Part shown: piece by piece, positions 1 through 1,610 of the stretch
Layout of the letters: the number at the start of each line of letters is the position of its first letter
Numbering within the stretch: the stretch's first letter is position 1
Assembly: GCF_003334405.1 (NCBI RefSeq)
Contig: NZ_QOWM01000042.1
DNA: 1,610 nucleotides
Reading direction: 5' to 3' (one strand)
Source of the DNA: Escherichia coli
Lineage (GTDB): Bacteria; Pseudomonadota; Gammaproteobacteria; Enterobacterales; Enterobacteriaceae
The notes under the pieces: generated by a model
What the model was told of the DNA's origin: nothing
What the model saw: the letters and a program-made list of their open reading frames with translations, nothing else
Databases searched by the model: none
Program-made: the position numbers and the translations under genes

Positions 1-1610
1 ACGCTGGCGCGGCTGTGGGGGGCGCTGCCGCCGGATATCCGGTTAAGCCCGCATCTTTACCTGGCGACCAACAGCGCACAGGGGCCGTGGTGGATACTGG
101 GGTGGTCTGAGCGGGTGCCGGGTGCTGAGGACGTACTGCCAGCGCCGCTGCCGCCGTACCGGGTGCTTACCGGGATGGCGGACCGCTTCGGGCGGACGCT
201 GACGTACCGGCGTGAGGCCGCCGGTGACCTGGCCGGGGAAATCACCGGCGTGACGGACGGTGCCGGGCGGGAGTTCCGTCTGGTGCTGACCACGCAGGCG
301 CAGCGTGCGGAAGAGGCCCGCACCTCTTCGCTATCTTCTTCTGACAGTTCCCGCCCTCTCTCAGCCTCAGCGTTCCCCGACACACTGCCCGGTACCGAAT
401 ACGGCCCCGACAGGGGTATCCGCCTTTCGGCGGTGTGGCTGATGCACGACCCGGCATACCCGGAGAGCCTGCCCGCTGCGCCACTGGTGCGGTACACGTA
501 TACGGAAGCCGGTGAACTGCTGGCGGTATATGACCGCAGCAATACGCAGGTGCGCGCTTTCACGTATGACGCGCAGCACCCGGGCCGGATGGTGGCGCAC
601 CGTTACGCGGGAAGGCCGGAGATGCGCTACCGCTACGACGATACGGGGCGGGTGGTGGAGCAACTGAACCCGGCAGGGTTAAGCTACCGCTATCTTTATG
701 AGCAGGACCGCATCACCGTCACCGACAGCCTGAACCGGCGTGAGGTGCTGCATACAGAAGGCGGGGCCGGGCTGAAACGGGTGGTGAAAAAAGAACTGGC
801 GGACGGCAGCGTCACGCGCAGCGGGTATGACGCGGCAGGAAGGCTCACGGCGCAGACGGACGCGGCGGGACGGAGGACAGAGTACGGTCTGAATGTGGTG
901 TCCGGCGATATCACGGACATCACCACACCGGACGGGCGGGAGACGAAATTTTACTATAACGACGGGAACCAGCTGACGGCGGTGGTGTCCCCGGACGGGC
1001 TGGAGAGCCGCCGGGAATATGATGAACCGGGCAGGCTGGTATCGGAGACATCGCGCAGCGGGGAGACAGTACGCTACCGCTACGATGACGCGCACAGTGA
1101 GTTACCGGCGACGACAACGGATGCGACGGGCAGCACCCGGCAGATGACGTGGAGCCGCTACGGGCAGTTGCTGGCGTTCACTGACTGCTCGGGCTACCAG
1201 ACCCGCTATGAATACGACCGCTTCGGCCAGATGACGGCGGTTCACCGCGAGGAAGGTATCAGCCTTTACCGCCACTATGACAACCGTGGCCGGTTAACCT
1301 CGGTGAAAGACGCACAGGGCCGTGAAACGCGGTATGAATACAACGCCGCAGGCGACCTGACTGCCGTTATCACCCCGGACGGCAACCGGAGCGAGACACA
1401 GTACGATGCGTGGGGAAAGGCGGTCAGCACCACGCAGGGCGGGCTGACGCGCAGTATGGAGTACGATGCTGCCGGACGTGTCATCAGCCTGACCAACGAG
1501 AACGGCAGCCACAGCGTCTTCAGTTACGATGCGCTGGACCGGCTGGTACAGCAGGGCGGCTTTGACGGGCGGACGCAACGTTATCATTATGACCTGACCG
1601 GAAAACTCAC
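1..1610 (+). CDS. rhs: Rhs-family YD-repeat protein, conserved core region (partial at both ends; internal fragment of a much longer ORF)
   Basis: Seen in sequence: frame 1 (position 1 = first base of a codon) is open through 1608 with no stop codon; I translated it codon by codon. Translation includes ...RYRYDDTGRVVEQLNPAGLSYRYLYEQDRITVTD..., ...TRSGYDAAGRLTAQTDAAGRRTEYG..., ...VRYRYDDAHSELPATTTDATGST..., ...TRYEYDRFGQMTAVHREEGISLYRHYDNRGRLTSVKDAQGRETRYEYNAAGDLTAVITPDGNRSETQYDAWGKAVS...MEYDAAGRVISLTNENGSHSVFSYDALDRLVQQGGFDGRTQRYHYDLTGKL. Established knowledge: this YD/RHS repeat signature defines Rhs/teneurin/TcC-type shell proteins, and the sequence matches my recollection of the E. coli-type Rhs core. 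Family-level symbol only; the paralog letter cannot be assigned from the core. True start and stop are outside the window. Confidence 0.93.
322..378 (+). other. Ser-rich low-complexity segment (TSSLSSSDSSRPLSASAFP) within the CDS; likely flexible linker preceding the YD-repeat region
   Basis: Seen in sequence: codons 322-378 translate to TSSLSSSDSSRPLSASAFP. The DNA here is a pyrimidine-rich tract (cacctcttcgctatcttcttctgacagttcccgccctctctcagcctcag) with T/A-ending serine codons (TCT, TCA), unlike the G/C-ending codons elsewhere. The linker function is inference. Confidence 0.5.
487..1608 (+). repeat. Array of ~17 degenerate YD (RHS) repeats, conserved at protein level, within the Rhs core CDS
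   Basis: Seen in sequence: consecutive units at approx 487-552, 553-624, 625-684, 685-780, 814-876, 877-942, 943-1005, 1006-1068, 1069-1137, 1138-1200, 1201-1263, 1264-1326, 1327-1395, 1396-1455, 1456-1515, 1516-1575, 1576-1608+. Each has an aromatic-rich start (RYxYD / YxYD / EYD) followed by G(R/D/Q)(L/V/M)(T/I/V). Unit boundaries are approximate. At nucleotide level the units are diverged, apart from short shared codon strings such as cgctaccgctacga. Possible additional RHS-like unit upstream at ~181-290 (FGRTLTYRREAAGDLAGEITGVTDGAGREFRL). Confidence 0.75.

Follow-up and report, generated by a model that had tools for sequence, protein, structure and literature searches.

Can a few nucleotides shared by two distant units of a repeat protein serve as a deletion site in natural Escherichia coli? 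The question is raised by rhsD, a gene of the Rhs family, through a stretch of 1,610 nucleotides (nt) from contig NZ_QOWM01000042.1 (assembly GCF_003334405.1), the whole of which we refer to as the window. Frame 1 of its plus strand is open across all 536 codons, and the window, which matches rhsD of strain PigCaeca_1 at 99.9% identity and that of K-12 at 99.6%, corresponds to nt 460-2069 of the 4281-nt rhsD coding sequence, flanked by ybbP and ybbC. It is part of the E. coli rhsD Rhs core, an array of YD hairpins of ~21 residues that forms a shell around a C-terminal toxin, and the corresponding periodicity of ~21 residues is present in the protein. An earlier examination of the letters alone (the sequence-only reading) had pointed to a 14-nt sequence, CGCTACCGCTACGA, that occurs twice, in frame and encoding RYRYD both times, and had proposed that the two copies could act as microhomology for an in-frame deletion of 447 nt. 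Exact search and translation confirm the repeat, and the deletion itself exists: its exact junction is present in strain R18 and in four more public assemblies.

Deletion alleles with endpoints in the repeat

Both copies of CGCTACCGCTACGA start at the first position of a codon, and they are spaced 447 nt, or 149 codons, apart (Table 1). No further copy was found in the window even when two mismatches were allowed. Neither the window nor the full 4281-nt gene has a longer exact direct repeat, and this one reaches 17 nt if one mismatch is allowed (16/17). As a query for the deletion we used a 40-mer composed of the 13 nt before copy 1, the repeat itself and the 13 nt after copy 2; an intact gene can match it over no more than 27 exact bases, below the megablast word of 28. 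Among 5426 complete E. coli genomes, this junction gave one full-length match at 100% identity, in strain R18 (sputum, Taiwan; GCF_049354865.1), the other three matches being intact genes with a GAT codon after copy 1. The native 40-mers, used as controls, matched 5596 places (copy 1) and 4678 places (copy 2) in ~3200-3500 genomes, and sequence resembling the window occurs in 3661 of the 5426, with a median of three places per genome.

At the rhsD locus of R18 (L002 7931-11764), the gene is 3834 nt long as compared to 4281 nt, forms a single open frame of 1277 residues and contains one copy of the repeat. Removing the 447-nt segment from K-12 rhsD in silico reproduces the R18 gene with 0 mismatches over 3834 nt, and the regions flanking the gene differ between the two strains by one base per 4 kb on each side. 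The K-12 protein matches the NCBIfam model NF041261 RHS_core with 2788 bits over residues 1-1258, above the cut-off of 2000 that marks a curated RHS element core protein, and also matches TIGR01643 YD_repeat_2x and TIGR03696 Rhs_assc_core; the Pfam families RHS_repeat, TEN_YD-shell and RHS are on record for the rhsD-locus product, and Rfam gave no match. The R18 protein reaches 2444 bits against the same RHS_core model, in two stretches. Downstream of rhsD lie ybbC (Pfam Imm-NTF2-2) and then an orphan core fragment, and the ybbC immunity-like gene is intact in R18. The label that PGAP gives to the R18 allele is 'DUF4329 domain-containing protein', not RhsD.

A protein search with the 536-residue translation of the window listed 120 proteins, four of which (P0072, P0073, P0074 and P0153) have a 149-residue gap starting from residue 209 and are 99% identical to the window outside it. 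Besides R18, the assemblies that carry the deletion are GCA_001575375.1, GCA_050073135.1, GCA_031888655.1 and ERZ28667247, so that the five alleles derive from one complete genome, three draft genomes and one metagenome contig. In all of them nt 1-1097 of K-12 rhsD are followed directly by the sequence from nt 1531, the two parts overlapping by 14 nt, and a single copy of the repeat is present. The alleles are not confined to one locus. That on LOOE01000013.1 (L119) lies at the ybbP-rhsD locus, as in R18; those on DBIHND010000123.1 (L120) and on the ENA metagenome scaffold (L121) lie directly 3' of vgrG, which is an rhsE-type locus; and the contig of the fifth (L122) falls wholly within the core. 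A search of a protein collection with an 85-residue junction peptide returned short native fragments alone and did not recover the recorded R18 protein. For the reciprocal duplication junction, no full-length match was found in the complete genomes, the best coverage of the query being at most 88%; this query had 28 exact bases in common with native copy 2 and thereby matched 4660 native places, which makes its match counts uninformative.

One could suspect that such alleles are artefacts of sequencing or assembly, produced by template switching during library polymerase chain reaction or by a mis-join within a multi-copy gene. Cores of rhs genes are indeed multi-copy and common break sites of draft contigs, L119, L120 and L122 end inside the core, and the alleles are known from assembled sequence. 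Against this, assemblers work with k-mers and overlaps longer than a 14-nt repeat, the R18 chromosome is finished and has unique sequence on either side of the gene, the identical junction was obtained by five independent projects on different haplotypes, and the same approach recovered a second, 63-nt deletion in six finished genomes. Assembly error is unlikely, given that no assembler k-mer is as short as 14 nt and that R18 is a finished genome, and we judge it highly improbable that artefacts of either kind account for the alleles.

Origin of the repeat and number of deletion events

Where does the repeat come from? Dinucleotide shuffles produced two copies of CGCTACCGCTACGA in 0 of 200 cases, although this null is too generous, as it ignores the conserved YD-repeat motif encoded at both sites. 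When synonymous codons were shuffled and the protein was kept, an exact repeat of at least 14 nt appeared somewhere in 22% of shuffled windows and 30% of shuffled whole genes, and the two RYRYD sites became identical in 1.6% (analytic) to 2.8% (14/500) of cases. Since rhsC, at 77% DNA identity, keeps the RYRYD peptide at the two homologous sites but spells it with other codons (CGTTACCGTTACGA and CGCTACCGTTATGA), the peptide is conserved across subfamilies and the nucleotide identity is a coincidence of codon choice that is specific to the rhsD/E subfamily.

The sequence-only reading had named just this, a coincident codon choice for a conserved motif, as grounds for abandoning its proposal. 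As an account of how the repeat arose, it is borne out by the shuffles and by rhsC; as a refutation of the deletion it fails, since the alleles exist. That the repeat is inert, a coincidence without any mutational consequence, would agree with the repeats of at least 14 nt in 22-30% of synonymous shuffles, with the other codons of rhsC and with the second site reading CGGTATGCTTATGA in 18 of the 105 metagenome contigs that bear copy 1. Exact deletion alleles with these endpoints in five assemblies nevertheless refute the idea as far as consequence is concerned, the account of origin being left standing, and we give an inert repeat next to no credence.

Two further observations concern the repeat. 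Three complete genomes have GAT instead of GAC after copy 1 (639-641; L003 3001-3030, L004 3001-3033), a variant that extends the exact repeat to 17 nt (CGCTACCGCTACGATGA) and is represented by two alleles, L003 and L004. A higher-order period of 149 residues, suggested by two repeat families at 447-nt spacing, was considered and rejected, the z-score at offset 149 being 1.2 and 20 of 149 residues being identical in register.

How often the deletion has arisen can be judged from the sequence on either side of the junction. From a comparison set of 100-odd intact loci, we took for each allele the one closest to it over 534 nt on the upstream and 860 nt on the downstream side of the junction. 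The flanks of R18 have 0 mismatches to K-12, and those of L121 have 0 to the intact locus L045; L119 has three mismatches to its closest intact locus; and L120 and L122 share L029 as closest intact locus, with two and 0 mismatches, respectively. All these closest intact loci keep the normal 447-nt spacing. The five alleles thus represent three haplotype backgrounds and two loci (rhsD and the vgrG-linked rhs), each background with an intact twin, so that the length polymorphism which the sequence-only reading had set as its test is found at exactly these coordinates. Single-nucleotide polymorphisms (SNPs) that separate the backgrounds come as near to the junction as 13 nt on its upstream and 77 nt on its downstream side, and the three intact parental alleles all have exactly the 14-nt repeat, 16/17 when extended. 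An intact allele agrees with each background on either side of the junction, which makes three or more independent intragenic deletions of 447 nt likely, as judged from these comparisons.

An alternative is a single deletion event, after which homologous recombination or gene conversion carried the deletion into other alleles and into the second locus. That conversion takes place between rhsD and rhsE is evident: strain MRE162 has the 63-nt deletion in both genes, which show 100% identity across the first 3.2 kb, and the same is seen in the DAM/ANT lineage. Moreover, L002 and L119 are separated by three SNPs and L120 and L122 by two, so that the five alleles may represent three events. A single origin would, however, require conversion tracts of less than ~100 nt centred on the junction on three separate occasions, given that the backgrounds already differ 13 nt upstream and 77 nt downstream and that each has an intact allele identical on both flanks. 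We regard a single origin as unlikely.

We also considered the deletion as an inter-paralog mosaic, a possibility prompted by the position of all six mismatches between R18 and the window downstream of the junction. It was rejected, as all six sites also separate K-12 from the window and R18 is identical to K-12. Because both flanks match a single intact allele with 0-3 mismatches, the 447-nt deletion is not a crossover between paralogs. As for the six sites themselves, all the differences between the window and K-12 rhsD lie within 126 nt (1149, 1182, 1206, 1242, 1257 and 1274), the remaining 1484 nt being identical, and the cluster looks like a short recombination or conversion patch.

In the mechanism that we propose, two hairpins 149 codons apart, which have the same RYRYD codons in the rhsD/E subfamily, supply a direct repeat of 14 exact nt (16/17). 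The two copies would occasionally pair out of register, either by slippage of the nascent strand at the replication fork or by single-strand annealing after a break, upon which one copy and the intervening 433 nt would be lost. The product is a still-open gene that lacks residues 362-510, with the frame kept because the spacing is a multiple of three. In the alleles, the endpoints fall in the 14-nt repeat, one copy is retained, the event recurs on different backgrounds and loci, and the frame is retained. According to the literature, deletion in E. coli at homologies below 25 nt is RecA-independent, and its frequency increases as the repeats lengthen and lie closer together (PMC2621351; PMC5426353, citing Albertini 1982, Bi and Liu 1994, Lovett 1993/94). 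The 447-nt deletion fits this short-repeat class in that its endpoints lie in the repeat, one copy is left, the homology is below ~25 nt and the junction is recurrent.

We thus consider it likely that the repeat is a rare mutational hotspot, a source of recurrent deletion noise whose alleles are rare, do not spread and are probably damaging or at best shorten the shell. Several points weigh against this reading. The deletion is very rare, at ~1 in 4700 loci in the complete genomes, and the protein clusters that hold its product have one member each. A metagenome scan for the 26-nt junction GAGATGCGCTACCGCTACGATGACGC gave 0 matches among the ~105 informative contigs of this one collection, where a degenerate control returned 107 native contigs; L121, which contains the 26-nt junction, belongs to an ENA assembly apparently outside the scanned collection. 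The five alleles are known from assembled sequence, and we infer the RecA-independent slippage or annealing pathway from the length of the repeat alone. Finally, with gene conversion active in the rhs family, a single origin combined with very tight conversion tracts is a formal possibility.

Other in-frame deletions and exchange between rhs loci

The 447-nt segment is not the only part of the core that has been lost in frame (Table 1). A deletion of 63 nt (21 residues) between the two copies of CCGGACGGGC is present in the metagenome contigs L022 and L072, and its junction was found at 12 places in 6 complete genomes, two per genome, these being rhsD and the vgrG-linked rhsE. Alleles with this deletion are L117 and L126 (MRE162), L115, L116, L118, L022 and L072. 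The lineage with this deletion has been sampled in the UK, Lebanon and South Africa, and the loss of the one YD unit is tolerated and persists in it. The two genes of MRE162 lie ~1 Mb apart and diverge in the tip alone, and their identity over the first 3.2 kb is direct evidence of gene conversion between paralogs. The remark in the sequence-only reading that the core is a substrate for inter-paralog recombination is established background (PMC3150448, citing Lin, Capage and Hill 1984); such recombination is seen in the 63-nt deletion, yet it is not the source of the 447-nt deletion.

Table 1 Features of the window, with the repeats and endpoints of natural in-frame deletions
Position	Strand	Feature	Basis
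1-1610	+	Internal part of the open reading frame of an rhsD/rhsE-subfamily Rhs core; YD-repeat shell hairpins	Open frame 1, identity to rhsD, NCBIfam RHS_core
625-638	+	Copy 1 of 14-nt repeat CGCTACCGCTACGA, R209-Y-R-Y-D213 (codons 209-213); upstream endpoint of natural 447-nt deletion	
1072-1085	+	Copy 2 of 14-nt repeat CGCTACCGCTACGA, R358-Y-R-Y-D362 (codons 358-362); downstream endpoint of natural 447-nt deletion	
639-1085, equally 625-1071	+	447-nt segment (149 codons, ~7 YD units) lost in five public assemblies	Junction alignments
928-937	+	Copy 1 of 10-nt repeat CCGGACGGGC (15/16 extended); upstream endpoint of natural 63-nt, one-YD-unit deletion	
991-1000	+	Copy 2 of 10-nt repeat CCGGACGGGC; downstream endpoint of 63-nt deletion	
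1141-1149	+	Copy 1 of 9-nt repeat CAGATGACG; upstream endpoint of natural ~87-nt (29-residue) deletion	Proteins P0049, P0050, P0052
1228-1236	+	Copy 2 of 9-nt repeat CAGATGACG; downstream endpoint of ~87-nt deletion	
485-489	+	TGGTG, 5-nt microhomology of natural 168-nt (56-residue) deletion; partner at 653-657	P0067, L124
679-691	+	12-nt in-frame deletion (LSYR lost; GLSYRYLYE to GYLYE)	Both rhs paralogs of the DAM/ANT/VTB97584v lineage

Three more deletions have endpoints within the window. The ~87-nt deletion between the copies of CAGATGACG is present at the DNA level in L123 (CP026872.1), where the two BLAST segments overlap by 12 nt; rhsD of L123 is split into several open reading frames, and an IS1 lies nearby. 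In L124 (JBFZNW010000147.1), window positions 1-489 are joined to 653-1367 with a 5-nt overlap. The 12-nt deletion occurs in L115, L116 and L118, with 1-3 nt of flanking microhomology, but not in MRE162, which has the 63-nt deletion. For the 447-, 63- and 87-nt deletions, the window offers no exact match at the same spacing that is longer than the repeat used (14, 10 and 9 nt); the 168-nt deletion used 5 nt.

Further length variation was noted among homologs. The partial Rhs proteins P0091-P0093, P0123, P0151, P0152 and P0154, at 72-75% identity to the window, have a 21-residue gap near the site of the 63-nt deletion, which other proteins of the same identity do not; judging from this identity they apparently belong to the other rhs subfamily, that of rhsC, in which a parallel one-unit deletion may have occurred. 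A 9-nt (3-residue) insertion in the Ser-rich segment TSSLSSSDSS (~315-330) is found in many alleles, including O157, the matches to which extend over 1619 nt as opposed to 1610. Small indels are clustered at residues 105-132 in more distant homologs. At the protein level, partial proteins (drawn from P0099-P0106, P0063, P0156/P0157, P0141/P0143 and P0145-P0150) also include gains of 18 residues at residue 477 (O157) and of 42 at residue 200, as well as deletions of 67, 25 and 21 residues near residues 45-58.

Consequences for the shell and relation to known systems

The shell has solved relatives of the beta-cocoon type, Tse5 (8cp6, E 4e-121, query residues 290-924 against residues 189-826 of the chain) and RhsA (7q97, E 2.5e-86). 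In Tse5, the barrel consists of 40 YD hairpins in one spiralling sheet that is closed by two plugs (PMC10684867). Because RhsD 290-924 aligns to Tse5 189-826, the loss of residues 362-510 is predicted to take ~7 of ~40 hairpins out of the first half of the shell, which would probably prevent its closure.

Could the in-frame deletion nonetheless be selected, as a smaller working shell, or as a disarmed effector in which translation through to the toxin tip and the immunity gene are kept? R18 retains the frame and, downstream, an intact ybbC, the 447-nt event recurs, and the 63-nt deletion has persisted in a lineage found in three countries. The spacing, being a multiple of three, preserves the frame automatically, however, and all the 447-nt-deletion alleles are singletons, as expected of mutation without positive selection; a closed barrel that has lost ~7 of its ~40 hairpins is also unlikely to stay sealed, to judge by Tse5 (PMC10684867). 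We find selection of the deletion very unlikely. Since every 447-nt-deletion allele is a singleton, the pattern is one of recurrent mutation without spread, in line with the repeat as a source of deletion noise.

Among known systems, one close in kind is deletion between short repeats by RecA-independent slipped misalignment (Albertini et al. 1982; Lovett and colleagues; as cited in PMC5426353 and PMC2621351). In both cases the endpoints lie in a short direct repeat of which one copy is kept, the homology, here 14 nt, is much too short for RecA-dependent exchange, the longest repeat is preferred and the junction recurs. They differ in that the rhsD deletions are natural alleles in public genomes, whereas the known systems were selected laboratory mutants, and in that the rhsD repeat stems from a protein motif repeated in frame, to which the product owes its open frame.

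The same gene family gave the Rhs elements their description as a 'rearrangement hot spot', through recombination between rhsA and rhsB (Capage and Hill 1979; Lin, Capage and Hill 1984; as referenced by PMC3150448). Here too internal repeated sequence is the substrate, and exchange between paralogs takes place in rhsD/rhsE. The classic event, however, involves kilobases of near-identity between loci and rearranges the chromosome, whereas the 447-nt deletion is intragenic, involves 14 nt and has flanks from a single allele; inter-paralog mosaicism was thus not found for the 447-nt deletion, while inter-paralog spread is supported for the 63-nt deletion. Displacement of the C-terminal tip and recombination with orphan tips (Jackson et al. 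2009, PMC2935791) likewise generate rhs variation by recombination, but they swap the AT-rich toxin tip, whereas the rhsD deletions remove YD units from the GC-rich core and leave the tip untouched (guanine-cytosine content in rhsD is 60-69% in the core and 32-37% in the tip). Finally, tandem repeats in bacterial surface proteins and at contingency loci vary in copy number, and there, as here, whole units are lost in frame. Unlike those repeats, the YD units are not tandem repeats at the DNA level (Tandem Repeats Finder, with a minimum score of 30, found none), no full-length duplication junction was found, and the events are rare, at the ~1 in 4700 loci given above.

The gene family, the YD shell, deletion at microhomologies and recombination between Rhs paralogs are already established (PMC3150448, PMC2935791), and the 447-nt deletion of rhsD is a further instance of a known process in a known gene, with no new mechanism or system. 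In the literature that we covered, which was incomplete, no description was found of in-frame deletions within Rhs cores or of a hotspot in rhsD. What the analysis adds is that public genomes bear out, to the exact base, what had been predicted from raw sequence alone, namely that the DNA between the copies of a short in-frame repeat can be deleted. Genes of the rhs family that are 447 or 63 nt short are not to be written off as assembly errors, and the 14-nt junction offers a simple marker for tallying independent deletion events in large genome collections.

Gene conversion between rhsD and rhsE is clearly visible in the deletions that the paralogs share, and the natural in-frame deletions within the shell, of 149, 56, 29, 21 and 4 residues, form a catalogue of ready-made constructs for probing how far the loss of hairpins is tolerated. 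One could also speculate, though we think it quite improbable, that the loss of YD blocks at motif-encoded microhomologies is a recurrent and tolerated way of resizing or disarming the Rhs shell without polar effects on the tip or the immunity gene, the changes then being copied between rhs loci by gene conversion. If this were true, the alleles with deletions of 149 and 21 residues would be functional variants of the Rhs shell, and not debris.

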